This document shows positions 4,988 through 47,520 of a DNA stretch of 64,000 nucleotides, piece after piece. The notes beneath the pieces are model-generated. The model was not told the DNA's origin. It saw nothing but the letters and a program-made list of their open reading frames with translations, and made no database searches. Position numbers and translations under genes: made by a program. Source of the DNA: an uncultured Verrucomicrobiae bacterium (GTDB taxonomy: Bacteria > Verrucomicrobiota > Verrucomicrobiia > Chthoniobacterales > JAATET01); NCBI GenBank assembly GCA_963719495.1, contig CAVRCI010000002.1, positions 128,001 through 192,000 of the forward strand. Reading direction: 5' to 3'. Each line of letters begins with the position of its first letter. The stretch's first letter is position 1.

Positions 4988-5126
4988 GATTTGTATGACC
5001 GAACGTCAAGCTCAGCCACCCTGAGCGGGGCAACGAATGTCTAGGAAAGGTGTTTGCGGGAGGGGGATCGGTCGGCCAAGGCTTGCCGTAGGCCGGCTAG
5101 GGGTTGGCTGCAGCGCCTTGTTCGTC

Positions 5127-5462
5127 GGAAGAGGTGACTGCACAATGGAGGACCCGATCGTCCGACAGGCCGACGATGGTCAAACCCAGCAAGCGGCTTC
5201 GTTAGAGCATTCAGTAGAAGAGGCTTCTGTGGTCCAGATTGACTACGCATTATAAATATATTGCTCGTGACAAGAGCAGGGCGGAACGGATTCTGGATGG
5301 ATTTACTCATGCCGCGTGAGCGCCCCAGGCGTCCATGGCAGGCGAATAACCGTTGGGGTCGAATCGGGAGTGATCAATGGAAAACTAGAATCGTGCTCAA
5401 TCGTATGCCGAAGGGAATCGAGCAACTCTGAACCTTCCCTTGATCTCCCCTCTAATAAATCA
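5127..5462 (-). repeat. Repeated cassette family A copy (336 bp)
   Basis: One of 13 copies. Confidence 0.9.
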
Positions 5463-5589
5463 GGCGAACGTCAAGCTCAGCCACCCTGAACGGACGACCG
5501 GAGACAACTGGTGATCAACTGCCGGTGGCGGGACCGCGCAACCCCAGCAGCGAAGCGGCTAGGGGTTGGCTGCAGCGCCTTGTTCGCTT

Positions 5590-6252
5590 TCATTCCTTCT
5601 TTTTTATCTCTTTGAGATAACGTTCATACTCTATGCCGAGTATCTTGAACTTTTGAGCAAATGGAATTACGACTAGAGCTACAACGATACCAAGAAGCGT
5701 CAGTCTGGTTGAGTCAACTAATTCAATTGCTGCCTGATCGCAGAAGAAGTCGACGATAGCTAGAATAAAAAAGATACCGGCGATCACCCAGCATACTGTT
5801 TGAAAGCGGTCTTTCGTCTGCTCGATGTCGGTAGCAATCTGTTCTTTCGTCGTCGCGACGGAATTAGCGGACAAAGAATGATACGAAGGAAATAATTCTG
5901 GACTTAAAGGTTGGACAGAATTCCCGCTATCGACGTAATAGAAATCGAAAGGCTTGTCAAATGCAGGTCCCTTGGCTCGAACGACCAAGTAGCAGGGTGC
6001 GCCAACAGCACGGGCCGCTTTGGAATATGCAATGAGCTGTGCAAAGACTTTTCGTTGGACAGAGTCATCAACCGCTCCTTTAACCTCGAAGAATGCAATC
6101 CGACGGTCTCTCGAAAGGTCGGTGATGGCAAAATCCGGTCGATATCGGTCACCAAGTCGGGCTTCGAATGCAATGGCATCCGCGGGATAGCCTTTCTTGA
6201 GAAGAAATTGATGAAATTCCTGTTCAAGTTCCGAGTGAAAAGATGGATTCAT
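5590..6252 (-). CDS. PD-(D/E)XK (HsdR-N-like) nuclease domain plus 2 C-terminal TM helices
   Basis: KGYP..RPDFAI..FFEVK; hydrophobic C-terminus. Confidence 0.75.
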   Translation of the reverse strand: MNPSFHSELEQEFHQFLLKKGYPADAIAFEARLGDRYRPDFAITDLSRDRRIAFFEVKGAVDDSVQRKVFAQLIAYSKAARAVGAPCYLVVRAKGPAFDKPFDFYYVDSGNSVQPLSPELFPSYHSLSANSVATTKEQIATDIEQTKDRFQTVCWVIAGIFFILAIVDFFCDQAAIELVDSTRLTLLGIVVALVVIPFAQKFKILGIEYERYLKEIKKKE

Positions 6253-6569
6253 TTATAAATAGCGAACGTCAAGCTCAGCCACCCTGAGCGGGCAATCAAG
6301 CCAACCCTGAGGTGAGCTGCCGTTAGCGGGACCGAGCAACCCCAGCCAGCGAAGCGGCTAGGGGTTGGCTGCAGCGCCTTGTTAGACCGCATTTATTTAT
6401 TTGGGCTGTAATCCGATCCAACGAATTCGTGCATGATTCTGCACCTCAATTCGTTGACGATGGTCCGAGAACGAGAATTACGAATTATTGCGGTAGGCAG
6501 GAGGCTGTGACCAAGCCGTTGGCGAAGAACTATTGTATCCGGAGCAAGCGTTTCGCATGACAGTCGCTT

Positions 6570-6920
6570 CTAAAAATCGTTTTTCAATTCGCCGAGTTTC
6601 GTGATCACCCATACCAGGTAGTAGATGGATAGTCCTCCATAGATGATCGAATAGTCGGTTCCGGTAGGAAGGGGAGCGAGTGTGAAAAACGCCACTGCTG
6701 ATGCGAAGCCGACGAGCGAGAGTCCCCAGGAATAGACTGATCGAAAAGGAACGAAGGTCCCAATGAGAAAAGAACCTAGGAAAATGAGAAGAACCAAAAG
6801 GGCTGCTGTCATCCATCCCGGCGGATAGACTAAGATGCTTCCGATCATGAATATGAAGACTCCAAGCGCGGAAAGCGCAGTAGCGATCGACAGGAGGATT
6901 CGAGCAGCGGAAAGAATCAT
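6570..6920 (-). CDS. Cassette membrane protein
   Basis: About 4 TM segments; ATG just after R'. Confidence 0.75.
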   Translation of the reverse strand: MILSAARILLSIATALSALGVFIFMIGSILVYPPGWMTAALLVLLIFLGSFLIGTFVPFRSVYSWGLSLVGFASAVAFFTLAPLPTGTDYSIIYGGLSIYYLVWVITKLGELKNDF

Positions 6921-7025
6921 TTTTTATGGTCTAACGTCAAGCTCAGCCACCCTGAGCTTGTATAGGGATTTGGCAAACGGAACAACTGCCTGTAGAGGGT
7001 TCCTCAACCCAAGTCGCGATAGCGG

Positions 7026-7397
7026 CTAGGGGTTGGCTGCAGCGCCTTGTTCGGCCTCATCCATTGGAGTCCGGGTATTGCTACGGTATAAGGGAATGAC
7101 GAGGAAGTAGATGATGGCACCAATGAAGTTTGTAAAAATAATCACCATCGTCCAAACGATTTTGTCTGTTGCCGAAAGGCCGCTATTCAGAAGCATGCAA
7201 ATAAGTGCCGCTATCCAAATTGCGAACAGAGCTACAGCCGACGCAAGCATCGCAACCGGAATCATTGAAACAAGGGTCTGTTCGATTCTTGTCTGGCCGT
7301 CGGGATCGGCAATCCCATAGGAGATACCCGTGTATAAAATACCTGCCGCGAATGCAAAAAATATAATAGAGATGAGAAGGAGGGAAGCGCGCTTCAT
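7026..7397 (-). CDS. Membrane protein with PLDc_N-like motif
   Basis: DKIVWTMVIIFTNFIGAIIYF. Confidence 0.75.
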   Translation of the reverse strand: MKRASLLLISIIFFAFAAGILYTGISYGIADPDGQTRIEQTLVSMIPVAMLASAVALFAIWIAALICMLLNSGLSATDKIVWTMVIIFTNFIGAIIYFLVIPLYRSNTRTPMDEAEQGAAANP

Positions 7398-7545
7398 ATG
7401 TAGTTATGTTTAATTGGCCGAACGTCAAGCTCAGCCACCCTGAGCGGGGCAACGAACGTCTAGGAAAGGTGTTTGCGGGAAGGGGATCGGTCGGCCAAGG
7501 CTTGCCTCAGGCCGGCTAGGGGTTGGCTGCAGCGCCTTGTTCGTC

Positions 7546-7881
7546 GGAAGAGGTGACTGCCCCATGGAGGACCCGATCGTCCGACAGGCCGACGATGGTC
7601 AAACCCAGCAAGCGGCTTCGTTAGAGCATTCAGTAGAAGAGGCTTCTGTGGTCCAGATCGACTCCGCATTATAAATATATTGCTCGTGACAAGAGAAGGG
7701 CGAAACGGATTCTGGATTGATCTACTCTTGCCGCGTGAGCGCCCGAAGCGTGCATGGCAGGGGAATAACCGTTGGCGTCGAATCGGGAGTGATGAATGGA
7801 AAACCAGAATCGTGCTCAATCGTATGCCGACGGGAATCGAATAACTCTGAACCTTCCCTTGATCTCAACTCCAATAAATCA
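7546..7881 (-). repeat. Family A copy (336 bp)
   Basis: One of 13 copies. Confidence 0.9.
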
Positions 7882-8014
7882 GGCGAACGTCAAGCTCAGC
7901 CACCCCGAACGGGTAATCGAGCCAACCCTGAGGTGAACTGCCAATAGCGGGAACGAGCAACCCCAGCCAGCGAAGCGGCTAGGGGTTGGCTGCAGCGCCT
8001 TGTTAGGCTGTATT

Positions 8015-8572: not shown

Positions 8573-8581
8573 TTAATATAA

Positions 8582-8677: not shown

Positions 8678-8694
8678 ATCTTTGATTCCACGAT

Positions 8695-11395: not shown

Positions 11396-11803
11396 TCATT
11401 TCATGTGGTGAGAGTATCCCTTCAAGACCTTTTTCGATGCTTTATCAAAGCGTTCCAGAAGCATCCATCCGTATTCTGGATGATCTTCATTGTAATGAAC
11501 TAGATATAAGGTCGAAATGCCTATAGGAAGCTTTGGAGCTATTGAAAGATATGCAACTTGCATTATTTCAGGCAGTGTCGTGCCTGAAGGAACTTTAAAC
11601 AATGTAATTGGAGTTACGGAGGAATAGAGATATTTTGAGCCAATGCCTTTTGTTAGGACGTTCGCCCTAATTACCAAGTCTGCTTTGTCATAAAGTTCTT
11701 GTTCATATGATTCAGCTTTTAGAGATGTGATCGCGAATGATGCTAGGAATGTAAAATAACAGACAAGTTTTCGTGCCACGATTGAGTGGAGTATTTTGTT
11801 CAT
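11396..11803 (-). CDS. Secreted hypothetical protein
   Basis: Signal-like N-terminus; ADLVIRANV. Confidence 0.75.
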   Translation of the reverse strand: MNKILHSIVARKLVCYFTFLASFAITSLKAESYEQELYDKADLVIRANVLTKGIGSKYLYSSVTPITLFKVPSGTTLPEIMQVAYLSIAPKLPIGISTLYLVHYNEDHPEYGWMLLERFDKASKKVLKGYSHHMK

Positions 11804-11946
11804 CCGCCGGAGGCTGAGCCGAACGTCAAGCTCAGCCACCCTGAGCGGAGCAACGAACGTCTAGGCGAGGTGTTTCCCGGAAGGGGATCGTTCGGCCAAG
11901 GCTTGCCGCTGGTCGGCTAGGGGTTGGCTGCAGCGCCTTGTTCGTC

Positions 11947-12282
11947 GGAAACGGTGACTGCACAATGGAGGACCAGAGCGTCCGACAGGCTGACGATGAT
12001 CAAATCCAGCAAGCGGCTTCGTTAGAGCATTCAGTCGAAGAGGCTTCTGTGGTCCAGATTGACTACGCATTATAAATATATTGCTCGTGACACGAAAAGG
12101 GCGGAACGGATTCTGGATGGATCTACTCATGCCGCGTGAGCGCCCCAAGCTTGCATGGCAGGCGAATAATCGTTGGCGTCGAATCGGGAGTGATCAATAG
12201 AAAACCAGAATCGTGCTCAATCGTATGCCGAATGGAATCGAACAACTCTGAACCGTTCCTTGTTCTCAACCCCAATAAATCA
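11947..12282 (-). repeat. Family A copy (336 bp)
   Basis: Tandem pair with the next cassette. Confidence 0.9.
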
Positions 12283-12411
12283 GGCGAACGTCAAGCTCAG
12301 CCACCCTGAGCGGGGCAACGAACGTCTAGGCAAGGTGTTTGCCGGAAGGGGATCGGTCGGCCAAGGCTTGCCTCAGGCCGGCTAGGGGTTGGCTGCAGCG
12401 CCTTGTTCGTC

Positions 12412-12747
12412 GGAAGAGGTGACTGCACAATGGAGGACCCGATCGTCCGACAGGCCGACGATGGTCAAACCCAGCAAGCGGCTTCGTTAGAGCATTCAGT
12501 AGAAGAGGTTTCTGTGGTCCAGATTGACTCCGCATTATAAATATATTGCTCGTGACAAGAGCAGGACGGAACGGATTTTGGATGGATCTACTCATGCCGC
12601 GTGAGCGCCCCAAGCGTGCATGGCAGGCGAATAATCGTTGGCGTCGAATCGGGAGTGATCAATAGAAAACCAGAATCGTGCTCAATCGTATGCCGAAGGG
12701 AATCGAACAACTCTGAACCTTCCCTTGATCTCAACCCCAATAAATCA
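12412..12747 (-). repeat. Family A copy (336 bp)
   Basis: One of 13 copies. Confidence 0.9.
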
Positions 12748-12844
12748 GGCGAACGTCAAGCTCAGCCACCCTGAACGGGCGACCAAAAACTACCGGTAAT
12801 CAGCTGCCGGTAGCGGGCCCGCGCAACCCCAGCCAGCGAAGCGG

Positions 12845-13132
12845 CTAGGGGTTGGCTGCAGCGCCTTGTTCGGTCTGTATTCGTTGCCTCTCGTAGGCTC
12901 GGAGCATATCGGATACAGCGATGCCGGAAATAGTCATATTCTCAATGTTTGCGTTTTTGATAGCCATCCCACTCAAATTGACGTTTTCAAAGACAGTATT
13001 TGTAAAGTCAACATCTTCAAACTTTGCATCTGACAACGCAATGTTCCGGAAGTCAGAGTGGCGCATTGAGACATTGAAATATTTTGAATAATCAATATTA
13101 GCGTCCTGCAAAATGCTTGGTTCGGAAGTCAT
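12845..13132 (-). CDS. Pentapeptide repeat protein
   Basis: ANIDY-SKYFN-VSMRH-SDFRN-IALSD-AKFED-VDFTN-TVFEN-VNLSG. Confidence 0.8.
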   Translation of the reverse strand: MTSEPSILQDANIDYSKYFNVSMRHSDFRNIALSDAKFEDVDFTNTVFENVNLSGMAIKNANIENMTISGIAVSDMLRAYERQRIQTEQGAAANP

Positions 13133-16784: not shown

Positions 16785-16971
16785 AAAATCGAGAATAGAT
16801 GATATAATTAATGTGGAAGCGTCAATGCCTTTTGGCCTAAGGCTGCCGAACGTCAAGCTCAGCCACCCTGAGCGGGCATTCAAGCCAACCCTGAGGTGAG
16901 CTGCCGATAGCGGGACCGAGCAACCCCAGCCAGCGAAGCGGCTAGGGGTTGGCTGCAGCGCCTTGTTCGGA

Positions 16972-17240
16972 TCCGCCCGTTCGTGGTCCCGTCGGATCTA
17001 CAATTTGCAGCCTTGCTCGTCGCCATGCCGATTGATAATCGAGCCATACCAGCGAGTCAGACCGATGCGCTTCGCTACGAAAATTGACGTCGAATGGACT
17101 GCGCAAAAATACCTTGGTTTGGGCTTTCAGATACGCAAATTCACCTCATTGTGGACCCCTTCCGAATACGCCAAGTTTATACAAAGCAAATTACGAACGA
17201 GCTTGCTTGCAGTTTGGGCTTCGAAGACCAGGGGCATAGG
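16972..17240 (-). repeat. Family D copy
   Basis: Similar to 32559-32827. Confidence 0.85.
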
Positions 17241-18381: not shown

Positions 18382-18512
18382 AATGCCCTAACGCCAAGCT
18401 CAGCCACCCCGAACGGGGGACCAAACTCTGAGCTTGATGTGATGGAATCGCCGGAAGTCAGGACAAGAGCGCCGGGTGACGGCTAGGGGTTGGCTGCAGC
18501 GTTCTGGTCGTC

Positions 18513-34177: not shown

Positions 34178-34485
34178 TATCTTGATTTTCTATCGTGGTC
34201 AGTCGTACGTTGCGAGGATATGCGAGTTATAGTGACCGAGTCCAAGAACAGTGTGCGAACAGCAAAGGGTATGCCGCTAACAAAACATTTTATTCCTAAG
34301 TTTTTCGGATCTCGAACGTCTCAAGGCTTCTTAAACCTCCGAAGCCATTTACATGAGCCGAACGTCAAGCTCAGCCACCCTGAGCGGGGCAACGAACGTC
34401 TAGGAAAGGTGTTTGCGGGAAGGGGATCGGTCGGCCAAGGCTTGCCTCAGGCCGGCTAGGGGTTGGCTGCAGCGCCTTGTTCGTC

Positions 34486-34821
34486 GGAAACGGTGACTGC
34501 ACAATGGAGGACCCGATCGTCCGACAGGTCGACGATGGTCAAACCCAGCAAGCGGCTTCGTTAGAGCATTCAGTAGAAGAAACTTCCGAGGTCCAGATTG
34601 ACTCCGCATTATTAATATATTGCTCACGACAGGAGCCGGGCGTAACGGATTTTGGATTGATCTACTCTTGCCGCGTGAGCGCCCCATGAGTACATGGCAG
34701 GGGAATAACCGTTGGCGTCGAATCGGGAAAGATCAATGGAAAACCAGAATCGTGCTCAATCGTATGCCGAAGGGAATCGAGCAACCCTGAACTTGCCCTT
34801 GATCTCAACTTCAATAAATCA
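34486..34821 (-). repeat. Family A copy (336 bp)
   Basis: One of 13 copies. Confidence 0.9.
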
Positions 34822-34942
34822 GGCGAACGTCAAGCTCAGCCACCCTGAGCGGGCGATCAAGCCAACCCTGAGGTGAGCTGCCAATAGCGGGACCGAGCAA
34901 CCCCAGCCAGCGAAGCGGCTAGGGGTTGGCTGCAGCGCCTTG

Positions 34943-35482
34943 TTAGCCCTCATTTGATATTTTCATGTATTGAAACATTGGATACCCCGCCCATCCGTTG
35001 GGGAGAACAATCACTCTTGCATGAACGGGTTGCTCTGGTGAATCGGATTGCGAAGGAGCGTAGGTGTGAATGATATGGACATAATAAGAATATTTTCCTC
35101 TTGGTTTGTCTTTGTTCGTGGTTGAGGTGGAAGATATACGTTCAATTGAGACAAGCTCTGTCGATAGGAGCTTATTCTTACTTTTGCTCGAACTTGGTAG
35201 GTTATCTCCGTGGAAAGATTCTGCGCGGTTATAGGCATCTTTGAACGTAAAACCATATGCAGAGGGATCGTCCAAATCTACTGGCTCGATCGAGTCCCAT
35301 AGCTTCTTCGGGGCTATGAATGTCATGAAGACCTTCTCCGAACGTATAACTTCTTCTTTGGTGGATAAGACCGTATCCCCGCCTTGTGGGATAAACGGGA
35401 TGCAATAGCGCTCCTCTGCAGAACGTGTAATGTGCGCGGTGGAAAGAAGTAGTGCAGCGAGTAGGATTGGATGTGTATTCAT
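34943..35482 (-). CDS. Secreted hypothetical protein
   Basis: Signal peptide; TAA in R''. Confidence 0.72.
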   Translation of the reverse strand: MNTHPILLAALLLSTAHITRSAEERYCIPFIPQGGDTVLSTKEEVIRSEKVFMTFIAPKKLWDSIEPVDLDDPSAYGFTFKDAYNRAESFHGDNLPSSSKSKNKLLSTELVSIERISSTSTTNKDKPRGKYSYYVHIIHTYAPSQSDSPEQPVHARVIVLPNGWAGYPMFQYMKISNEG

Positions 35483-35612
35483 GTGATTATGGGCTAACGT
35501 CAAGCTCAGCCACCCTGAGCGGGTAATCAAGCCAACCCCCGGGTGAGCTGCCAATAGCGGGACCGAGCAACCCCGGCCAGCGAAGCGGCTAGGGGTTGGC
35601 TGCAGCGCCTTG

Positions 35613-36098
35613 TTAGCCCTGTATTTTTTCAGGTTCTACAAGTTCAATCGTAGCGTTATTCCGTAGGGTTTCGATAAACTGATCAAGAGTAGGTTGAGTG
35701 GCATCCTTCCTATTCTCTGTTTTGATGGCTTGACGGAGTGCTTGGACCGCCAATTTGTCGGTTTCGACCTGCGTGAAGGAATTCATTGTATAACCTTGGT
35801 CAGCGAGGGATTTATCGAACGCTTCCTGATCTCCCTTGAATTCTTCGTTGAGGATCGTAGTTGTCCGGTCGTTTATCAGTGTGTCAGGAATCGTGTATTT
35901 ACGCCTTTGAAATTCCAGTAATATCAATTTACGATGGATGGCATCGTTACGAAATGTTTCAAAGTCAGGTTTTGATAAGTCATCGATGGATACCATGACT
36001 GGGCTTTTGTCGACGTATGCGCAAACGACCTGCTCTGCAGCCGATGTGATAGCAACTTGAGTCAATAGGAGTAGTGTTGTGACGATGTTTGTTTTCAT
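35613..36098 (-). CDS. SurA N-terminal-domain-like protein
   Basis: Signal peptide; EEFKGDQEAFDKSLADQGYT..LRNNATIE. Confidence 0.7.
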   Translation of the reverse strand: MKTNIVTTLLLLTQVAITSAAEQVVCAYVDKSPVMVSIDDLSKPDFETFRNDAIHRKLILLEFQRRKYTIPDTLINDRTTTILNEEFKGDQEAFDKSLADQGYTMNSFTQVETDKLAVQALRQAIKTENRKDATQPTLDQFIETLRNNATIELVEPEKIQG

Positions 36099-36238
36099 AG
36101 AATTTTATGGGCTAACGTCAAGCTCAGCCACCCTGAGCGGGGAAACGAGCGTCTAGGAAAGGTGTTTGCTGGAGGGGGATCGGTCGGCCAAGGCTTGCCG
36201 TAGGCCGGCTAGGGGTTGGCTGCAGCGCCTTGTTCGTC

Positions 36239-36574
36239 GGAAACGGTGACTGCACAATGGAGGACCTGAGCGTCCGACAGGCTGACGATGATCAAATCCA
36301 GCAAGCGGCTTCGTTAGAGCATTCAGTCGAAGAGGCTTCTGTGGTCCAGATTGACTACGCATTATAAATATATTGCTCGTGACACGAGAAGGGCGGAACG
36401 GATTCTGGATTGATCTACTCTAGCCGCGTGAGCGCCCCAAGCGTGCAGGGCGGGCGAATAACCGTTGGCGTCGAATCGGGAGTGATCAATAGAAAACCAG
36501 AATCGTGCTCAATCGTATGCCGAAGGGAATCGAACAACTCTGAACCTTCCCTTGATCTCAACCCCAATAAATCA
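36239..36574 (-). repeat. Family A copy (336 bp)
   Basis: One of 13 copies. Confidence 0.9.
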
Positions 36575-36701
36575 GGCGAACGTCAAGCTCAGCCACCCTG
36601 AGCGGGCAACCGAGCCAACCCCCAGGTGAGCTGCCAATGGCGGGAACGAGCAACCCCAGCCAGCGAAGCGGCTAGGGGTTGGCTGCAGCGCCTTGTTCGG
36701 A

Positions 36702-36969
36702 TCCGCCCGTCCGTGGTCCCGTTGGATCTGCTATCTACAGCCTTGCTCATTGTCTAGCCGACTGATGATCGAACCATGCCAACGAGTGATACTGATGCTG
36801 GTCGATAGCGAAATACGCAACGAATGAGCTGGGTAAAATACCTTGGTTTGGGCATTCGGATACTCAAAGCAACCTCATTGTGAACACCTTCCGAATACGC
36901 CAATTTTATACAAAGCAAACTACGAACGAGTTTGTTTGCAATTCGGGCGTCCGGCGACTGGGGCATAGG
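36702..36969 (-). repeat. Family D copy
   Basis: Nearly identical to 3134-3401. Confidence 0.85.
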
Positions 36970-37097
36970 TCCGAACGTCAAGCTCAGCCACCCTGAGCGG
37001 GCAATCGAGCCAACCCCCAGGTGAGCTGCCGATAGAGGGACCGAGCAACCCCAGCCAGCGAAGCGGCTAGGGGTTGGCTGCAGCGCCTTGTTAGGCG

Positions 37098-37604
37098 TCA
37101 CAGCTTCTTTAGTCTAGCAGCATACGATGAAGGAAGCAGTGGCTTATGCCTTGAGGCGAGACTGCTGATCATGAAGGCGTAGTCCGAGCTAAACTCCATG
37201 TAACGCATGACCAAGGCAATGTTCTCTCTTCGTTTGACTTCGCTATTGTTGACTGAAGCAAACCACGGAGAATTCGGAATGGGTCCAGAATGATTTGATT
37301 GTCCTGTAGATTCTATTTCTTCACCGGATTTCGCAAAATAGGTGCGAATCGTGCCTCTGATCTTTGAGACTGCGTTCTCGAATCCGTCGCTGTCAGCGTG
37401 AAATAAAACACTCAGTATCCCTAAATATCTCACTCCATATCTGAATGAAGTTGGAAGATTTGAGGTATCCAAAAGAATAGGTTCCACTGATCTACGTCCT
37501 CCACTAAGTCGAATTACATCTTCCGGTGTTAGAACATATTTTACGGCATGTTCGCAGACGGCAACGAACGTCTCGGCAGCGAGGGCGGGAGGCTGGTATT
37601 TCAT
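37098..37604 (-). CDS. SeqA C-terminal-domain-like protein
   Basis: ILSVLF..F..IRGTIRTYFA..PIPNSPWF..NNS..VM..MEF resembles the SeqA DNA-binding domain (by recall). Confidence 0.7.
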   Translation of the reverse strand: MKYQPPALAAETFVAVCEHAVKYVLTPEDVIRLSGGRRSVEPILLDTSNLPTSFRYGVRYLGILSVLFHADSDGFENAVSKIRGTIRTYFAKSGEEIESTGQSNHSGPIPNSPWFASVNNSEVKRRENIALVMRYMEFSSDYAFMISSLASRHKPLLPSSYAARLKKL

Positions 37605-37738
37605 ATTATTTCGCCTAACGTCAAGCTCAGCCACCCTGAACGGGCGAACTGAGGCAACTGGTGATCAACTGCCGGTAGAAGGTCCGCGCAACCCCAGGAG
37701 CGAAGCGGATAGGGGTTGGCTGCAGCGCCTTGTTCGGC

Positions 37739-38045
37739 CAACAGCGCCCAAATAACCGAAAGCTCTGCCATCCTACCATAGGTTTCGTGGTATCAAAAGT
37801 TATCATGATGGAATTGAAATGAGCTGTTGGCTCTTCGAAGATATCTCAAGTTGGCAAAAATAAATTTTTCGCTCCGCGAGTGTTTGATGCAGCGATCGTG
37901 ACAGACTGAAGCCCCGATAAGCCGGAGGAAGCATTGCTGATCGCGGGCCGTCCGCCTTGAGATCGCGGGCCGTCCGCCTTGAGATCTCGTGTAGATGGGG
38001 AGAAGGCGAGCGAGCTACCAATATATTCCTCCGCCGGAGGCTGAA
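37739..38045 (-). repeat. Gene-less cassette family F copy
   Basis: Matches 38811-39096; internal 21-bp duplication. Confidence 0.8.
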
Positions 38046-38182
38046 GCCGAACGTCAAGCTCAGCCACCCTGAGCGGGCAATCAAGCCAACCCTGAGGTGA
38101 GCTGCCGATAGCGGGACCGAGCAACCCCAGCCAGCGAAGCGGCTAGGGGTTGGCTGCAGCGCCTTGTTCGGCTGTATTTGTA

Positions 38183-38470
38183 TCAGAGTAACCGCGCACT
38201 ATGCCAGAATCGAGAAATGAGCACTGCCCGGCGTTGGTGATCTACGCGATAAATGATCCGGTAGGCTCCGTAAACGAGTTGCCGAGTTCTGCCATCATCG
38301 AACTCGGGAACAAGATTGCCCCTATCCGGCAGAATGCAGAGTGAAAGGGCCTCATCAATGAGTTGGTTTCCGAATCTTTCAGCGGCTCTCGGATCGTCAA
38401 AGGAAATATACCGGGCAATCTGACCAAGATCGCGGATTGCCCGTGGCGAGATTAAGACCTTGAAATCCAC
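38183..38470 (-). CDS. ParE/RelE-family toxin
   Basis: SPRAIRDL..YI..PDRG..VPE..YRIIY..WHSAR. Confidence 0.9.
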   Translation of the reverse strand: MDFKVLISPRAIRDLGQIARYISFDDPRAAERFGNQLIDEALSLCILPDRGNLVPEFDDGRTRQLVYGAYRIIYRVDHQRRAVLISRFWHSARLL

Positions 38471-38640
38471 GAGGGAATCATCTGGCGAACGTCCTCAGCG
38501 GGAATACCTTCTCCTCTCTCTAACTCATCGAATCCCTCTCGGACTCCAGCAATGAAGTCAATTTCGCGGGCAATGTCGGCCAGCGAAACCTCGGTTGGAA
38601 GACGCTGAATCAGATCGATTGCGATGTCTTGGCTGCTCAT
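38452..38640 (-). CDS. Putative antitoxin
   Basis: Small acidic ORF overlapping the toxin. Confidence 0.8.
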   Translation of the reverse strand: MSSQDIAIDLIQRLPTEVSLADIAREIDFIAGVREGFDELERGEGIPAEDVRQMIPSWISRS

Positions 38641-38810
38641 GCGATCAAGATGGACGGTGAAACAGATTTTGCAAGACAATCAGAGCCGAACGTCAAGCTC
38701 AGCCACCCTGAACGGGCGATCTGAGGCTGCTGGTGATCAACTGCCGGTAGAAGGTCCGCGCAACCCCAGGAGCGAAGCGGATAGGGGTTGGCTGCAGCGC
38801 CTTGTTCGGC

Positions 38811-39096
38811 CAAAACCGCCCAAACAACCGAAACGTCAGCCAGCCTGCCATAACTTTCATAGTATCAAGAGCATTCATGATAGAATCGAAATGAGCTGAT
38901 TGCTCTTCGGTGATATCTCAAGTTGGCAAAAAATAAATTTTTCGCTCCGCGAGAGGTTGATGCAGCGATCGTGACAGACTGAAGCCCCGATAAGCCGGAA
39001 GAAGCATTGCTGATCGCGGGCCGTCTGCCTTGAGATCTCGTGTAGATGGGGAGAAGGCGACCGAGCTACCAACATATTCCTCCGCCGGAGGCTGAA
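38811..39096 (-). repeat. Family F copy
   Basis: Matches 37739-38045. Confidence 0.8.
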
Positions 39097-39227
39097 GCCG
39101 AACGTCAAGCTCAGCCACCCTGAACGGGCGAACTGAGGCTACTGGTGATCAACTGCCGGTAGAAGGTCCGCGCAACCCCAGGAGCGAAGCGGATAGGGGT
39201 TGGCTGCAGCGCCTTGTTCGGTCTGTA

Positions 39228-39644
39228 TTATCGTGATTGCTCTTTGATGGTTTCAAGCAGCTTCGTATAGGGTGTCCAGATGACCTCTAAACTGGTTGGA
39301 TCGGAGGGAACCACGAAGAATGCATAGCCGACGTGAAGCTCTTCGTGAATAACCGCAACTTTGAGCTCTGGATTTTTAATTGAGCTATACCAAGTGACAA
39401 TACGAACACCTGATTCCTTTTGAGTTGGAAGAATGAAATTGTTGCCTTTTGGAGCTTCTGTAACTGCAAAGCCATTGCTGAGCAAAGCTGACTTGAACTT
39501 GCTTTCAGACTGTGTCGCGTCAGAAGTGGAATTGCTGGTCTGCCCCCAACTGAATGACGCGGAATCTACAATGGGAAGCTTCTTATCTGCGGCGTGGCAG
39601 ACTGAAACTGTGAGCATAACTAAAGATGCGATTTGGATTTTCAT
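39228..39644 (-). CDS. Secreted hypothetical protein
   Basis: Signal peptide. Confidence 0.75.
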   Translation of the reverse strand: MKIQIASLVMLTVSVCHAADKKLPIVDSASFSWGQTSNSTSDATQSESKFKSALLSNGFAVTEAPKGNNFILPTQKESGVRIVTWYSSIKNPELKVAVIHEELHVGYAFFVVPSDPTSLEVIWTPYTKLLETIKEQSR

Positions 39645-39830
39645 AAATTTAATGACCGAACGTCAAGCTCAGCCACCCTGAGCGGGCGACCAAGCCAACC
39701 CCACGGTGAGCTGCAGGTAGCGGGACCGAGCAACCCCAGCCAGCGAAGCGGCTAGGGGTTGGCTGCAGCGCCTTGTTAGGACTGTATTTCCACGTTTCCC
39801 GTTCATTGGAAAGTGCATTGGAACAGTCAC

Positions 39831-40256
39831 TTATTTGAAGTTGTCTGGATTTTGAACATGGTCGATGGCTACCCCCTTCTTTTTGGAGCTTCTCTTTGAA
39901 TAAGTGCAGATGCAAATTAGAAAAGATGCTACGCATGCCGCTTTCAGAATAAGCAGCAAGATCGGCTGAAACCAAGCTCTCGTAAATACCTCGATAAAAT
40001 CTGATAGTCCGAATAAAGCAAATGAGATCGTGCATGCCATCAATATGTCCTGATCTCCCCGACTCTTTTTGCGGTTATTGAGAAATGCAAAGGCGATCGC
40101 CAGCCAGAATACTCCTTCGATGAGATTGAATATCTGGTCTAATTCAAGTCGGGGTATTCGAATAGCGATAAATCCAAGAATCATTGAAGCGATTGCGACT
40201 CCCCATATTCCGAATTCCAAAAATGCGGTAGGGAATGCAGTGTATTGCTTCTTCAT
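39831..40256 (-). CDS. Membrane protein
   Basis: FNLIEG.FW..FGLSDFIEV motif. Confidence 0.78.
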   Translation of the reverse strand: MKKQYTAFPTAFLEFGIWGVAIASMILGFIAIRIPRLELDQIFNLIEGVFWLAIAFAFLNNRKKSRGDQDILMACTISFALFGLSDFIEVFTRAWFQPILLLILKAACVASFLICICTYSKRSSKKKGVAIDHVQNPDNFK

Positions 40257-40398
40257 GAGTCCTAACGTCAAGCTCAGCCACCCTGAACGGGTGATCGAGC
40301 CAACCCTGAGGTGAACTGCCAATAGCGTGACCGAGCAACCCCAGCCAGCGAAGCGGCTAGGGGTTGGCTGCAGCGCCTTGTTAGGTCTGCATCGTGTT

Positions 40399-40674
40399 TT
40401 ATACCAACGTGAATAGTTCTACCGTTCCTCCGGATTTATGAATAGGACTTTGAACCATGATACTCTTGGCAGTATCAATATCTGGAACTTCAATGGCGAT
40501 GTATCCAGTAACTGTCTCTGAAATGCATGAATCAAATCTATTGTTTTTTAGCGAGATGCCATTGTCCAGAGCAGAGCCGCCAATGATGTATCCCTTTTCA
40601 TGGAGCATCGAAAAATAGTCATCCCAGTCATTCGACTGTCCGACGCCATGGTTGATCATGATGTATTTATTCAT
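40399..40674 (-). CDS. YCII-related domain protein
   Basis: GGSAL..TGYIAIE..GGTVEL. Confidence 0.75.
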   Translation of the reverse strand: MNKYIMINHGVGQSNDWDDYFSMLHEKGYIIGGSALDNGISLKNNRFDSCISETVTGYIAIEVPDIDTAKSIMVQSPIHKSGGTVELFTLV

Positions 40675-40870
40675 TTTTGGATTCGAGTCCGGTAAAACTC
40701 TATGTGTTATTTGCAAACTTGCTGTGTGTTTAAATGCATTATTTTGAATGACCTAACGTCAAGCTCAGCCACCCTGAACGGGCGAGCGGAGGCAACTGGT
40801 GATCAGCTGCAGGTAGAGGGTCCGCGCAACCCCAAGAGCGAAGCGGATAGGGGTTGGCTGCAGCGCCTTG

Positions 40871-41185
40871 TTAGGGCTGTATTATGATATAGCTTCCAGG
40901 GTCCGCCGTATCCACCGCTGTGACAATCTTCGGAATGAAGGGCTTGAGAAATGGCCAGCGAATCGTGAAGAGTTCGACAATAGCGATCTTGCGGTTGGAC
41001 AAGTTTTGCTGATACCGGAGGTTCTTGTCTCCGAGGACAAAAACATCGAAGCGGGCGTCAATCAGCTTCATCAACTCACCATTTTTAACGCCGGCCCAAC
41101 CCTGATGTTGCACCGAAGTGGTGGAATGGTGATCGAGATACTTCAGTAGCGGATGAGGAACATTCTCATCAATGATGACCGTCAT
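40871..41185 (-). CDS. PIN-like toxin (DUF5615/VapC45-like)
   Basis: IIDENVP..GW.G.KNGEL..DKNL.YQQNL. Confidence 0.88.
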   Translation of the reverse strand: MTVIIDENVPHPLLKYLDHHSTTSVQHQGWAGVKNGELMKLIDARFDVFVLGDKNLRYQQNLSNRKIAIVELFTIRWPFLKPFIPKIVTAVDTADPGSYIIIQP

Positions 41186-41388
41186 GAATCTGATTGTGCC
41201 AGTCGTAGAAGCTCTTCCGCATCCACTTTTTGAACCGAGGGGAAAAAGCTGATGAAGTCATCCAGAGAGTATCCATCAGTCACGTAGTCCAAAAGCGTCT
41301 GAGCTGGAACGCGACTACCTCTGAAAACGATCGTGCCACCCAGAATTTCTGGGTCGGAGTGAACTGGACTGTGATCTAGCGAGATCAT
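41182..41388 (-). CDS. DUF433 antitoxin
   Basis: DPEILGGTIVFRGSRVP. Confidence 0.9.
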   Translation of the reverse strand: MISLDHSPVHSDPEILGGTIVFRGSRVPAQTLLDYVTDGYSLDDFISFFPSVQKVDAEELLRLAQSDS

Positions 41389-41559
41389 GGCTGGAAGTTA
41401 CTCTAGCTGGGCCTATCTGCAATCTCATATTGCCTCATGCCCTAACGTCAAGCTCAGTCACCCCGAACGGGCGATCTGAGACTCCTTGTGATCAACTGCC
41501 GGCAGAATGTTCGCGCAACCACAGGAGCGAAGCGGCTAGGGGTTGGCTGCAGCGCCTTG

Positions 41560-41985
41560 TTAGGCCGCATTGTATGTGTGTCCTACAGTTTGAACGAGCT
41601 GTGAGAAGAGATCGCTATCATCCTGAATCATTTGTTCAGCGCTTATGAGTCTTGCGGATTTCCCGGCTCCAGTCTTCGTGAATCTGACGCAAATCTGAAA
41701 GATATGAGTAATCTGCATGGGGGTTCTAGATCGCGGCCAGCTACGCTCGTAGAAAACAAAATATGTTGCTTCTTCGTTGCGGAGCTGTCCGGTCCTCAGA
41801 TGCTCTGATTCAGTGGCGCTGATCTTGTCCGATATGTCTGTTGAATCAATTCCATCGGGGATGGATAGGAAAAAGAGCTTTCCATAAATTTCTGGGAGGA
41901 TCTCTAGCTCTGATGAATTCATCATTCCAATCGGATCTCCAACTCCGGCGATCGAATATCTCTGGGTTGCGAGAATGTATGTCAT
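41560..41985 (-). CDS. Cassette hypothetical protein
   Basis: Fills the cassette; TAA in R''. Confidence 0.72.
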   Translation of the reverse strand: MTYILATQRYSIAGVGDPIGMMNSSELEILPEIYGKLFFLSIPDGIDSTDISDKISATESEHLRTGQLRNEEATYFVFYERSWPRSRTPMQITHIFQICVRFTKTGAGKSARLISAEQMIQDDSDLFSQLVQTVGHTYNAA

Positions 41986-42123
41986 AAATTTTTGGCCTAA
42001 CGTCAAGCTCAGCCACCCTGAGCGGGTGACCGAGCCAATCTTGAGGTGAGCTGCCGGTAGCGGGTTCGAGTAACCCCAGCCAGCGAAGCGGCTAGGGGTT
42101 GGCTGCAGCGCCTTGTTAGGCCC

Positions 42124-42381
42124 TCATTTGTCAGCGGACGCGAACGCAAGGATCTTCACATGGCGATCAGCGAAGTCGATCCAGTAGTGTATCGCGAAGC
42201 CGTCAATCACTGAAACATCCAGCAGTCGACCTGTAGAATCGTTCTCGGAGAAGTCCGAATGGCTATCCGGTGATTCCCGAATTCTGTCAAAATGAGTTAG
42301 TAGTCTTAGACGCTTTCGCTTCGTCAGGGAGTCGATATCTCGAACTACTTCAAGATCCACCAGTAGCTTATATGATCTCAA
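42124..42381 (-). CDS. RelE-like toxin
   Basis: I.YWIDFAD..VKIL; paired with a small upstream ORF. Confidence 0.7.
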   Translation of the reverse strand: MRSYKLLVDLEVVRDIDSLTKRKRLRLLTHFDRIRESPDSHSDFSENDSTGRLLDVSVIDGFAIHYWIDFADRHVKILAFASADK

Positions 42382-42383
42382 CT

Positions 42384-42578
42384 CTAGTTCTGATAGCGCT
42401 TCTTCAAGTCATCGAGCTCAATCCAATTGTTCGAGTCCCCGTCGTCAATCTTGTCCGACATACGTTGCTTGAATGTGCCGTCTCTGTTCGCTTGGATTGA
42501 TACGATGTATGCGACTAATTGGCGCTGCTCGCCCACCTCAAGATGTGCGATTTCGTCTTTGAGTTGGTTGAAGGACAT
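42384..42578 (-). CDS. Putative antitoxin
   Basis: Ends WIELDDLKKR; 2 bp from the toxin. Confidence 0.7.
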   Translation of the reverse strand: MSFNQLKDEIAHLEVGEQRQLVAYIVSIQANRDGTFKQRMSDKIDDGDSNNWIELDDLKKRYQN

Positions 42579-42749
42579 CCCTTACAGTGATTTTGGAAAT
42601 CTCGCGTGTCAAGCTCGTATATGGCCTAACGTCAAGCTCAGCCACCCTGAGCGGGCGTTTGTGTTCGACCGATGTCCGGCTGGAAGTTGTGGGTCCGCGC
42701 AACCCAAGCCGCGAAGCGGCTAGGGGTTGGCTGCAGCGCCTTGTTGGGC

Positions 42750-43083
42750 TAGCAACCGCCCAAAACTACTGAAGGCGATCTTATCTCGTTGCCAACCCCT
42801 TCGTATCAATACCGAAGGCTTTTGAATTGTAAGCGATCCTATTTGAACGTTGGCATCGAATTCGGAATCACCCATGTGCGTGTGCAATTGTTGTGGGCAG
42901 ATGACGCTGATCTCAACATCACATTTTTCATCCATCGGAGATTATTGCTTGTTGCCGAGTGAGAATATGACCGGATCAAAAGTTGTCGCCGATGAAGTAT
43001 CAAATATTACTCGTCCGAGCATCAGACGGTTGCGGAATGCTGCGGCATCCGGAAGTCTGACTTGTATTTTCAGGATTCATCGA
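42750..43083 (-). repeat. Family G cassette
   Basis: Shares a motif with 14082-14478. Confidence 0.5.
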
Positions 43084-43215
43084 GCCCAACGTCAAGCTCA
43101 GCCACCCTGAGCGGGCAATCAAGCCAACCCTGAGGTGAGCTGCCAGTAGAGGGAACGAGCAACCCCAGCCAGCGAAGCGGCTAGGGGTTGGCTGCAGCGC
43201 CTTGTTAGCCTGAAT

Positions 43216-43743
43216 TCAATTTCTTCGCATATGTTTAGAGGCAGACCCAAGAACTTCTGAGATATCTCCCAAAGCTTTGGTGGTGATGTCATAGACCACT
43301 GTTTTGGATGTTCGACTTTCGAATACGGCCGCCTCATGGCAACCGAAGCATATTAGAAGTGAGTATCCAGCACTTTCAGCATTCCATATGATCATATAGT
43401 CCGCGTGAAATCAGCCGCAGCTTTTCGGGCCACTGTATGGCCTCAGAGCTATAGCATTCGTCAAAATCCTATTTAATTGTTCCGTCCCTTTTTTGTCGAC
43501 CTGAACTGGCTTGCTGTAGAAGTAGAAATCAAGAGACGTAAACAAGAGCTCCTCAGATAAATCTCTTTTGTATTGAGCCCTGTGTTTCCGTGGGTTTGGT
43601 AAACCTTCGAACACCTTGATTGAGTCTGCAGAAGAAATGAATTCCTGAAACCAAATCCGATTGGTTTCAGAGAAAATTGCGTCTTCGCTATAGGAAACGC
43701 AAATGGTTCCGGCGAGTGCGATGATGGTGAGCAACTTTCTCAT
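43216..43743 (-). pseudogene. Secreted protein gene interrupted by an in-frame TGA at 43411-43413
   Basis: KSCG*FHADY...LLICFGCHEA continues in frame to a stop at 43216. Confidence 0.75.
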
Positions 43744-43873
43744 AGGCTAACGTCAAGCTCAGCCACCCTGAGCGGGGCTACGAACGTCTAGGCAAGGTGT
43801 TTGCCGGAAGGGGATCGGTCGGCCAAGGCTTGCCTCTGGTCGGCTAGGGGTTGGCTGCAGCGCCTTGTTCGTC

Positions 43874-44209
43874 GGAAACGGTGACTGCACAATGGAGGAC
43901 CAGAGCGTCCGACAGGCCGACGATGGTCAAATCCAGCAAGCGGCTTCGTTAGAGCATTCAGTAGAAGAGGCTTCTGTGGTCCAGATTGACTTCGCATTAT
44001 AAATATATTGCTCGTGACACGAGAAGGGCGGAACGGATTCTGGATGGATCTACTCAGGCCGCGTGAGCGCCCCAAGCGTGCATGGCAGGCGAATAATTCT
44101 TGGGGCCGAATCGGGAGTGATCAATGAAAAACCAGAATCGTGCTCAATCGTATGCCGAAGGGAATCGAGCAACTCTGAACTTTCCCTTGATCTTAACTCC
44201 AATAAATCA
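43874..44209 (-). repeat. Family A copy (336 bp)
   Basis: One of 13 copies. Confidence 0.9.
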
Positions 44210-44335
44210 GGCGAACGTCAAGCTCAGCCACCCTGAGCGGGCAATCAAGCCAACCCTGAGGTGAGCTGCCAATAGCGGGTCCGCGCAACCCCCGCCGCGA
44301 AGCGGCTAGGGGTTGGCTGCAGCGCCTTGTTCGAC

Positions 44336-44823
44336 GCGCATTTGTTCAAACTACGCATATCGTGACTTCCTCAAGCCAACCCCTCCGTATTTCTACCGAA
44401 GGCACTCCAATAATGAAGATCAAACCTTCGAAGAGGCTTCGCGATTGGAATCACTGAAATGCGATTGGAAGATTGTAGAGAGTAGAGCCTGAATTGGAGC
44501 GGGGGACTTGGGATCGAGCTCACAAATATCCGCCTGGAAGATTGTATAGGGGTAGAGGCTGTAGTTGAATAGAAAGGGGGTATCAAGCTCACAAATAGAA
44601 GCTTGGAACGATTGTTGGGACATCTGGTGACTTCCGAACGATTGGTCGAAAATCAAAATATTCTACCCGTTGAGAAACTGTGTTGGTCGCCTAGGCCCCG
44701 ATCCTCCGTCCTACGCTGGTCGAAAAAATAGAACCCGACCGCTTGAAACAAGACGTGGTGTCCCCTGACGGCGTCCGAATATGTGAGAGCGAAATATAGT
44801 CATCCGCCGGAGGCTCACAATGA
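44336..44823 (-). repeat. Family C copy
   Basis: Matches 1744-2230. Confidence 0.85.
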
Positions 44824-44920
44824 GTCGAACGTCAAGCTCAGCCACCCTGAGCGGGCGACCAAGCCAACCCTGAGGTGAGCTGCCGGTAGCGGGACCGAGC
44901 AACCCCAGCCAGCGAAGCGG

Positions 44921-45492
44921 CTAGGGGTTGGCTGCAGCGCCTCGTTCGGTCTGTATTTCCCACACCCGTTTAGTGATCCGAAGCATGTCTTCATGTATCT
45001 CTACATCATTCTTTATGAATGCGTTGGGAATGTGGTGCGAAAACGACATACCGATCTTTTGGAGGATTTTCCTGCTGGAATGATTCCATACTGCGTGTGT
45101 TGCAGAAATTTCGGTGGCGTGGAGAACACGGAATCCGAATGATAGAATGCACCTGCATGCTTCAGTCATATATCCTCGGTTTTGAAATAATGGATGGGTC
45201 CAGAATCCTATGTCCCAGATATCTGAGTTCGGAGAGCAACTCGTCCGATGCGCTTTCCGTTGTCGAGATCACATATGGTAAATACGAAAGCAGTTCCTAA
45301 GTCCCATGCAATCTTGTTATTTTGGAAGGGTTTTAATAGCTCGTCCATCGAATCAGGCGGATCCCTGCGCATCCCATCGCAAAAATTTGGATGACGACTA
45401 GCAGAAAATACAAATTGAATATCTTCTCTTGTGAACTTCCGCAGAACTAAGCGATCGGTTAGCAAGATTGTGTCCGATGGAATTATTTTCAT
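44921..45492 (-). pseudogene. RimJ/RimL-type GNAT acetyltransferase, frameshifted near 45225
   Basis: TDRLVLR... in one frame, WDIGFWTHP..NRGYMTEA..N.SS.KILQKIGM in another. Confidence 0.8.
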
Positions 45493-45622
45493 GAGACCGA
45501 ACGTCAAGCTCAGCCACCCTGAGCGGGCAATCGAGCCAACCCCCGGGTGAGCTGCCGGTAACGGGTTCGAGCAACCCCAGCCAGCGAAGCGGCTAGGGGT
45601 TGGCTGCAGCGCCTTGTTCGGA

Positions 45623-45891
45623 TCCGCCCGTCCGTGGTCCCGTCGAATCTGCTATCTACAGCCTTGCTCATTGTCTAGCCGACTGATGATCGAACCATAC
45701 CAACGAGTGACACTGATGCGGGTCGATGGGGAAATACGCAACGCATGGGCTCGGTAAAAATACCCTGGTTTGGGCCTTCGGATACTCAACGCAACGTCAT
45801 TGTGAACACTTTCCGAATACGCCAATTTTATACAAAGCAAATCACGAACGATCTTTTTTGCAATTTGGGCGTCCAGAAACTGGGGCATAGG
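45623..45891 (-). repeat. Family D copy
   Basis: Similar to 3134-3401. Confidence 0.85.
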
Positions 45892-46020
45892 TCCGAACGT
45901 CAAGCTCAGCCACCCTAAGCGGAGCAACGAACGTCTAGGCAAGGTGTTTGCCGGAAGGGGATCGGTCGGCCAAGGCTTGGCGCAGGCCGGCTAGGGGTTG
46001 GCTGCAGCGCCTTGTTCGTC

Positions 46021-46356
46021 GGAAACGGTGACTGCACAATGGAGGACCCGATCGTCCGACAGGCCCACGATGGTCAAACCCAGCAAGCGGCTTCGTTAGA
46101 GCATTCAGTAGAAGAGGCTTCTGTGGTCCAGATTGACTTCGCATTATGAATATATTGCTCGTGACACGAGAAGGGCGGAACGGATTCTGGATGGATCTAC
46201 TCATGCCGCGTGAGCGCCCCAAGCGTGCATGGCAGGCGAATAATTCTTGGGGTCGAATCGGGAGTGATCAATAGAAAACCAGAATCGTGCTCAACCGTAT
46301 GCCGAAGGGAATCGAACAACTCTGAACCTTCCCTTGATCTCAACCCCAATAAATCA
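46021..46356 (-). repeat. Family A copy (336 bp)
   Basis: One of 13 copies. Confidence 0.9.
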
Positions 46357-46484
46357 GGCGAACGTCAAGCTCAGCCACCCTGAGCGGGCAGTCGAGCCAA
46401 CCCTGAGGTGAACTGCCAGTAGAGGGTCCGAGCAACCCCAGCCAGCGAAGCGGCTAGGGGTTGGCTGCAGCGCCTTGTTCGGCT

Positions 46485-47006
46485 TCACCGTGGTCCTTCA
46501 TACTGTAGACTCTTCCTTATACTGGAGCGAACGCCAAATTCTATATTTGTCAAAATATCATCAATCTTCCACTCGTCCTCGATTCGGTGTAGCACAAGAA
46601 TATCAGTCCAAAATCGATCAGCGAGCGGTGGCTTGCCGCTAAAGCGAACTGTTGCGTAGGCTCGATCAGTAGCGGTAATGACGACTACTACTTCGACAAA
46701 GTTTCCGCCCTCCAAGAGGTTTGTAAAGAGGGGGCCTTCGTCCGGTGGAGGTTTGAGTTCCCTATATTTTTCTGGATTCCGTAGCGCGGCTTCTGTCCAA
46801 GCGTCCACGGTATCCTGTGCCGAAGCTATCGCGGCGCAGAAGCTCGGAGTAAGTGCTTCGAGACAATGTGCAATATCCTTCTGTTCAACCGTCCCTCGGA
46901 TTTCGAGTGCTTGCTTCTCTCTATAAAAGTTGTTGATCAGTGTTTCGATATCGCTTGCTCGAGCATCAGTTGTCCAAAGCAGTAAAATAAAAAAATATGC
47001 CTTCAT
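46485..47006 (-). CDS. Secreted protein (NTF2-like/DUF3828-like)
   Basis: Signal peptide; WTDILVL..WKIDDI. Confidence 0.72.
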   Translation of the reverse strand: MKAYFFILLLWTTDARASDIETLINNFYREKQALEIRGTVEQKDIAHCLEALTPSFCAAIASAQDTVDAWTEAALRNPEKYRELKPPPDEGPLFTNLLEGGNFVEVVVVITATDRAYATVRFSGKPPLADRFWTDILVLHRIEDEWKIDDILTNIEFGVRSSIRKSLQYEGPR

Positions 47007-47148
47007 GTGGAAATCCAAAGCCGAACCTCAAGCTCAGCCACCCTGAGCGGGGCAACGAACGTCTAGGAAAGGTGTTTGCGGGAGGGGGATCGGTCGGCCA
47101 AGGCTTGCCGTAGGCCGGCTAGGGGTTGGCTGCAGCGCCTTGTTCGTC

Positions 47149-47484
47149 GAAAGAGGTGACTGCACGATGGAGGACCCGATCGTCCGACAGGCCGACGATG
47201 GTCAAACCCAGCAAGCGGCTTCGTTAGAGCATTCACTCGAAGAGGCTTCTGTGGTCCAGATTGACTACGCATTATAAATATATTGCTCGTGACAAGAGCA
47301 GGCCGCAACGCATTCTGGATGGATCTACTCATGCCGCGTGAGCGCCCCAAGCGTGCATGGCAGGCGAATAATCGTTGGCGTCGAATCGGGAATGATCAAT
47401 AGAAAACCAGAATCGTGCTCAATCGTATACCGAAGGGAATCGAGCAAATCTGAACTTTTCCTTGATCTAAACTCCAATAGATCA
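47149..47484 (-). repeat. Family A copy in first position at attI
   Basis: One of 13 copies. Confidence 0.9.
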
Positions 47485-47520
47485 GGCGAACAGTATATTG
47501 GATGGAATTTTGGTTTCCGA
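47485..47520 (-). other. attI site (crossover G|TT at 47491/47490 on the minus strand)
   Basis: The first cassette ends in ggcgaac but is followed by unique sequence instead of an attC; lies just upstream of intI. Confidence 0.8.

Follow-up and report, generated by a model that had tools for sequence, protein, structure and literature searches.

A multi-copy, non-coding-looking cassette family in the very large chromosomal integron of an uncultured Verrucomicrobiae bacterium

Why should a cassette that looks non-coding be present in so many copies in a single integron? The question is raised by a stretch of 64,000 nucleotides (nt), hereafter the window, from an uncultured Verrucomicrobiae bacterium (positions 128001-192000 of contig CAVRCI010000002.1, here C2, of assembly GCA_963719495.1, here G000). 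The window covers the integrase end of a very large chromosomal integron and contains 13 copies of one cassette, named family A in this work; 31 copies were found in the genome. An original prediction, made from the sequence alone, had described these copies as a selected, repeatedly re-integrated unit that might be a promoter, an RNA, a small protein or a selfish cassette. The current analysis suggests that family A is a non-coding-looking cassette that likely reached 31 copies through copy-and-paste by the integron integrase IntI, that its constraint is visible only at the recombination site, and that it is probably a selfish or passenger element.

The array and the family A cassette

A search of the window with the two conserved arms of the attC site located 77 sites between 373 and 47144, all in a single orientation. 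In the whole genome, the C2 array measures about 148 kb (extent C2:~25900-175490), with 201 forward and 10 inverted attC arm matches; five further sites are located on contig C7 and one on C4, and 213 sites could be paired genome-wide. The 195 cassettes of the main array were clustered into 130 clusters, and 84 of them are members of multi-copy families. The coding cassettes have their genes on the minus strand, and the additional attC bases are found in the right-hand arm of the plus strand; thus, the cassettes are read from right to left, and attI is placed at 47490/47491. The open reading frame (ORF) of the integron integrase (47745-49352, plus strand, true start uncertain) carries the tyrosine-recombinase domains PF00589 and PF13495 at residues 225-523 and is located 600 base pairs (bp) from the last attC site of the window. 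The putative attI region (47491-47700) is the non-cassette sequence between the first cassette and intI and contains GTTAC-type repeats.

The family A unit has a length of 465 bp and consists of a 129-bp attC site and a 336-bp body. The 13 units detected in the window by a repeat finder are all on the minus strand: 5004-5468 (attC 5004-5126, body 5127-5462, and 6 nt of the split core site), 7423-7887 (body from 7546), 11824-12288 (from 11947), 12289-12753 (from 12412; the reference copy for searches), 25479-25944 (from 25603), 25945-26409 (from 26068), 32834-33298 (from 32957), 33299-33763 (from 33422), 34363-34827 (from 34486; the most diverged in the window), 36116-36580 (from 36239), 43751-44215 (from 43874), 45898-46362 (from 46021) and 47026-47490 (from 47149), the last of which is joined to attI. 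Direct extraction returned a body of exactly 336 bp at all 13 of these predicted starts, with 96 of the 336 columns variable among them. The three non-identical tandem pairs of the original prediction (11947/12412, 25603/26068 and 32957/33422) were found again, each with a spacing of 465 bp. Copy 47149 is followed by non-attC sequence and then by the ORF with PF00589 and PF13495, so it is the first cassette of the array, and its predicted position at attI holds.

Every unit in the window has R''/R' core sites, with GTT CGTC… on one side, …GGCGAA|C on the other and the crossover at G|TT, as in integron cassettes. The 6 nt TTCGCC move with the family A cassette whatever its neighbour. On the plus (bottom) strand, its attC site folds into a long bulged hairpin of -29 kcal/mol with paired R and L boxes, a value reached by 4 of 200 shuffled sequences; the opposite strand folds at -23.5 kcal/mol. 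The family A unit is therefore a canonical integron cassette in a minus-strand array beside attI and intI.

Among the 31 copies in the genome, 29 are in forward orientation on C2, one is in an inverted block of C2 and one is on C7. The inverted block lies inside the array and contains 10 attC sites (G000:C2:49700-55300), and the C7 copy belongs to a separate cluster of 5 attC sites (G000:C7:38000-40900). Two of the predicted properties hold in the window and only in part beyond it. The body was said to be invariant in length, which is true of all 13 window copies; genome-wide, one body of 337 bp and one of 338 bp were found. The attC type was said to be private, and in the window its centre occurs at 13 of the 77 sites, all of family A; among the 33 such sites in the genome, 31 belong to family A and 2 to a related gene-less cassette with a 272-bp body, so this attC type is private in the window and not in the genome. 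Nor is the type-A centre identical letter by letter, as several window copies have one to three substitutions and copy 25603 has one extra G.

Variation and origin of the copies

The alignment used below comprises the 31 copies of G000 and one copy from a genome of the same genus, G004. These 32 copies align over the whole 465 bp with three indel events: an extra G in the G-run of attC (4 copies), one additional base in one body, and two additional bases in the AT repeat of another body. Each of the three falls within or next to short runs or AT repeats.

Any two copies differ at between 1 and 53 of the 473 columns (median 33; 89-99.8% identity). Nine near-identical pairings, with only 1-5 differences in 473 columns, join copies up to ~126 kb apart; for instance, C2:35982 and C2:162359 differ at 2 positions, and C2:37151 and C2:161293 at 1 position. 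In all nine, identity of at least 98% starts at a cassette boundary and extends to the opposite boundary or into the generic attC site beside it, and the flanking cassettes are unrelated. This pattern, bounded by the cassette, marks site-specific movement of cassettes and not segmental duplication. Moreover, the copies are mosaics of a few haplotype blocks, and therefore recombination among copies is indicated.

Published work describes excision as semi-conservative, with the result that a re-inserted cassette is duplicated (Loot et al. 2012, PMC3458562; Souque et al. 2021, PMC8024014). The family A copies were likely made in this manner: the integrase would excise the cassette and re-insert it semi-conservatively by "copy and paste", through attC x attI and probably also attC x attC events, leaving duplicates, among which homologous recombination or gene conversion would then produce the mosaics. 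The presence of 31 copies throughout the array would also require attC x attC insertion, a long history or rearrangement. Two of the cues given with the original prediction carry little weight. Five A-A pairs in the main array are at chance level, since at least five were obtained in 2046 of 5000 permutations, and a family A cassette in position 1 is unsurprising because the family fills 29 of 196 positions.

Constraint was examined over the same 32 copies. In the body, 132 of the 336 columns are variable. The longest invariant run is 13 columns, a length that 753 of 5000 permutations of the variable columns also attain, and no over-dispersion was found in the counts per 12-nt window. The R''/L'' arm of attC has 0.06 changes per column (2 in 33 columns), the other attC arm 0.29 and the attC centre 0.41; the attC-proximal half of the body has 0.41 and the 5' half of the body 0.52. 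Low values are confined to the attC arms, so the visible constraint is on the recombination site and not on its cargo. The arms may owe part of their conservation to gene conversion with the ~200 other attC sites.

The body also shows no coding pattern. Its 157 distinct changes have a synonymous share of 0.21-0.30 in the six reading frames, compared with 0.26-0.27 expected from the observed transition bias (all p >= 0.22), and the differences are spread evenly across the codon positions; the lack of a synonymous excess was the same with 28 copies. The test has power in this array, because a control coding cassette of 651 bp, present in two copies, gave 2, 2 and 19 differences at codon positions 1, 2 and 3.

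The original claim of a selected, repeatedly re-integrated unit can thus be divided. Re-integration is borne out by the cassette-precise duplicates of the nine pairings. Selection on the body is not: no frame has a synonymous excess, the variable columns are distributed as if at random, and the body changes at least as fast as the attC centre. Variation fitting neutral drift, which the original prediction had itself set down as the counter-case, was what the body gave. Because the body varies as unconstrained DNA would, a selfish or passenger cassette is the reading with most support, and of the four options offered at the start, the selfish cassette is the one favoured by the data. Such a cassette would have no function for the host.

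The distribution of the family among relatives is narrow. Repeats resembling attC were found in 15 of 40 related genomes. The family A body was detected among these 40 as a single copy in G004 (94% identity to the query) and in part, as a chimeric relative, in G001, a second genome of that genus; it was not found in G002, G003 and G005. The G004 copy has 5 differences from one of the G000 copies, whereas the flanking core genes of the two genomes are only 75-82% identical. Other cassettes common to G000 and G004 (L051, G004:C7:1165916-1169251) have 92-97% identity, and this contrast with the core genes indicates that the two species draw on one cassette pool. An exact-pattern scan of genome contigs returned one carrier (L069), an uncultured Verrucomicrobiae metagenome-assembled genome, and the same scan of metagenome contigs returned only one unrelated chance match (L070). 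Judged from these sequence searches, the burst of family A is specific to this lineage.

The attC-proximal module and alternative explanations

Several observations weigh against a purely passive cassette spread by integrase. The first is that ~150 nt beside attC are common to family A, to a gene-less family with a 384-bp body (fam3), to the gene-less family with the 272-bp body (fam4) and to the G001 variant, and that the 5' parts of these cassettes are unrelated. Within family A, variation is also lower in the columns that are conserved across the families (13 of 51, versus 47 of 111; Fisher p = 0.053), which hints at some selected cis element. Second, a promoter or a short RNA would fix only a few positions, so the lack of visible constraint says little against either. 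Third, body indels are rare, with 2 events versus 157 substitutions; this rarity, however, is no special mark of family A, as other repeated non-coding-looking families of the array have equally few gaps (1-6 gap columns versus 70-167 variable columns). Fourth, the copy at attI, read originally as the most recently integrated, has no close twin and differs from its nearest relative at 20 positions, so it was moved or imported and not freshly duplicated. Finally, the idea that the type-A attC site is more recombinogenic finds no support in folding: its median minimum free energy is -25.1 kcal/mol versus -28.2 kcal/mol for the common type, and the pairing probability of its R box is no higher.

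In all 35 main-array cassettes having the motif CTGYCGGAYG, it is located 46-47 nt from the end of the body, and the module also contains a TCACGAG…ATAT motif 129-149 nt from that end. A sequence-only model of the module matched 42 places in G000, one in G004 and one in G001, and had no match in 14 further genomes searched from the taxonomic family (G002, G003, G005 and 11 more). No reading frame and no fold common to the module-bearing families was found. A hairpin between CGTCGGA at the attC edge and TCCGAC 40 nt away was considered and rejected as a common feature, being present in family A, present in fam3 only with a bulge, and absent from fam4 and the G001 variant.

The alternative that survives best, possible and yet doubtful in our estimation, is that family A is a regulatory non-coding cassette, a promoter, small RNA or insulator acting on neighbouring cassettes or on the integron. 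With many such copies, segments of a 148-kb array that is beyond the reach of one Pc promoter would be switched on again or silenced. Gene-less cassettes with sense and antisense promoter activity are documented in the published descriptions of such elements (PMC11014356; PMC6557892), the family A copies are spread over the whole array, and the module stands at a fixed distance from attC in three families, with the marginal constraint given above. The TATAAT that had been reported in most copies (minus strand, e.g. 12534-12539) is indeed intact in 11 of the 13 window copies, and one weak terminator-like hairpin is present on the cassette (sense) strand at 12563-12547. The promoter option nevertheless fared poorly. 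The TATAAT is about as variable as its surroundings, and the only -35-like hexamer, the TTGTCA noted in the same prediction, is located upstream of it at a distance of 13 nt, as had been stated, and is present in 6 of 13 copies. A scan for the sigma-70 consensus on both strands of two copies, with a spacer of 16-18 nt, found 0 sites versus 0.4 expected. The pentamer AATCG occurs five times in the 5' half of the body, a marginal enrichment reached by 207 of 5000 shuffles.

The RNA option received no better support. A search against Rfam 15 gave no match at E <= 10 for two copies (11700-13000) and none at the gathering score for the whole window. When the alignment of the body was folded, the covariation term was near zero on both strands, and the cross-family module gave the same result. 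A search of all column pairs for compensatory changes returned only G-T intermediates and linkage between the two main haplotypes. The single copy in the related G004 array is a further point against a regulatory role.

With regard to the module itself, a bolder proposal is that it is a cis-acting element that promotes copy-and-paste by the integrase, for instance by providing an accessory binding site or by assisting folding. This we regard as unlikely; if it were true, there would be a class of self-propagating "parasitic cassettes" that exploit integrons.

Another proposal gives the repeats a use as such. Dispersed direct repeats of 465 bp might be kept as a homology scaffold for RecA-dependent deletion, duplication and inversion, which would supply a second route of cassette reshuffling. 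The mosaic structure of the copies, their identity of 89-99.8% and the family A copy within the inverted block of 10 attC sites (C2:49.7-55.3 kb) agree with such exchange. However, any repeat would offer this incidentally and without selection, exchange between direct repeats mainly removes cassettes, and in these data a selected role is not distinguishable from a side effect. We consider the proposal rather improbable.

A small-protein cassette is less credible still and appears highly improbable. Three ORFs might be proposed for it: an acidic one of 36 codons on the plus (antisense) strand, which has a Shine-Dalgarno-like GAGGTGA 7 nt upstream; a sense ORF of 40-50 codons in the 5' part; and a sense ORF of 95 codons that runs into attC, is rich in Arg, Ser and Pro, and has no coding pattern. 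The 36-codon and 95-codon ORFs are each open in 12 of the 13 window copies, and the stop codon of the 5' sense ORF, which is followed by a weak hairpin, is kept in 32 of 32 copies. Against this, synonymous changes are 9 of 40 in the 36-codon ORF, 8 of 51 in the 5' sense ORF at 40 codons and 28 of 88 in the 95-codon ORF, compared with a share of 0.26-0.29 expected. A 1-nt insertion frameshifts the 36-codon ORF in one copy, a stop appears after 11 codons in the G001 relative, and no frame is common to the gene-less families. Four candidate ORFs had no match in Pfam. In a large protein collection, the 95-codon ORF matched one near-identical entry of 79 amino acids, and two other ORFs had 0 and 0 matches; no homologues were found besides that entry. 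A pseudogene origin of the body was also considered, and was rejected for lack of protein homologues in Pfam (four ORFs) and in the protein collection (three ORFs).

An assembly artefact or plain segmental duplication in place of cassette-level mobility is scarcely conceivable: arrays rich in repeats are difficult to assemble, and duplicates of a few multi-cassette blocks occur elsewhere in the array (families D13, D15 and D18), but the family A copies differ at 1-53 positions and have different neighbours, their homology ends at cassette boundaries, and the same-genus genome G004 holds a copy in a different context.

The wider locus and known cassette families

Other repeated families accompany family A. 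After family A, which has 28 members in the clustered set, the largest have bodies of 273 bp (12 copies), 491 bp (7 copies) and 384 bp (4 copies), and most of the repeated families tested have codon-position counts as flat as those of family A. The 273-bp family is found in the window at 3013-3405, 16851-17240, 32438-32831, 36581-36973 and 45502-45895, with 7 more copies in the genome; it also looks non-coding in spite of a 79-codon sense ORF, because its 160 changes are distributed as 52/52/56 over the codon positions. The 384-bp fam3 cassette, which shares the ~150-nt module with family A, has two window copies, at 18392-18898 and 27097-27602, both on the minus strand. Two fam4 copies (G000:C2:37620-37741 and 77359-77480) have the type-A attC centre; in the other two fam4 copies the centre differs. 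GGT takes the place of GTT in the inverse core triplet of every fam3 and fam4 copy seen.

Two features were observed around the integrase gene. The first ~224 codons of its ORF (47745-48416) precede the first Pfam domain and match no family; DNA-level conservation of this stretch extends to G004 and G005, and not to G001 or G002. An N-terminal extension of the integrase or a mis-set start may account for it. Directly downstream of intI, 49442-50998 consists of a 278-bp tandem repeat (5.6 copies, 93% matches). Pieces of it of ~50-60 nt recur many times in related genomes at 85-97% identity, like a dispersed repeat of the repetitive extragenic palindromic (REP) type.

Short-read contigs from two sediment runs were also compared with 30000-49400. 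Many joints fell within attC repeats, where the shorter side spanned only 25-36 nt; such joints are unreadable as cassette gain or loss.

Large arrays with many non-coding cassettes have been described in Vibrio. According to Boucher et al. 2006 (PMC1382264), the arrays of Vibrio vulnificus CMCP6 and YJ016 measure 151 kb and 138 kb, and the present array, with ~148 kb and ~213 attC sites, equals the biggest listed there (151 kb, 219 cassettes); the host in this case is a Verrucomicrobium. The same account reports that the non-coding cassettes of Vibrio tend to be paralogous, with one family of 45 members in CMCP6 and 34 in YJ016, that their close homologues are found only within vibrios, and that they are either selfish elements or carriers of promoters or regulatory RNAs.

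By that published description, the likeness to family A is extensive. In both cases the families are multi-copy, show no coding pattern, are homologous over the whole length and are scattered in very large arrays. Many paralogues are present in one array and close homologues only in relatives (31 copies in G000, 1 in G004 and a partial one in G001), and both interpretations, selfish or regulatory, are the same as here. The absence of protein matches, by which non-coding cassettes are recognised in that account, is also found in family A on the ORFs searched, bar the one near-identical entry of 79 amino acids. By the rule given there that no ORF may exceed 150 bp, family A would not be counted, because the mechanical 95-codon ORF runs into attC and is open in 12 of 13 copies. 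Family A differs from the Vibrio families as described in its Verrucomicrobium host, its own attC centre and the ~150-nt module common to two other gene-less families.

Two other known systems can be compared. Promoter-bearing gene-less cassettes (PMC11014356; Tansirichaiya et al. 2019, PMC6557892) are likewise gene-free and located inside arrays. Those cassettes promote transcription in sense or antisense, and the ones tested there are mostly single-copy; family A, in contrast, has no promoter consensus. Copy-and-paste duplication (PMC3458562; PMC8024014) resembles the present case in that the limits of each duplicate coincide exactly with the recombination points and one copy is at attI. The published cases, however, concern selected resistance genes in 2-3 copies at attI, whereas here 31 gene-less copies are distributed across the array.

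Family A is thus a new example of a known phenomenon, the empty multi-copy cassettes of Vibrio, and not a new kind. What is new is that three gene-less families have a common ~150-nt module beside attC. This module offers a concrete element for experiment and is the one feature worth it, the rest of the finding being ordinary. Bursts of empty cassettes, known from Vibrio superintegrons since 2006, also occur in a Verrucomicrobial integron. The present copies provide a clean data set for the question of selfish versus regulatory cassettes, with 32 aligned copies, an internal coding control and a constraint that is visible only in the attC arms.

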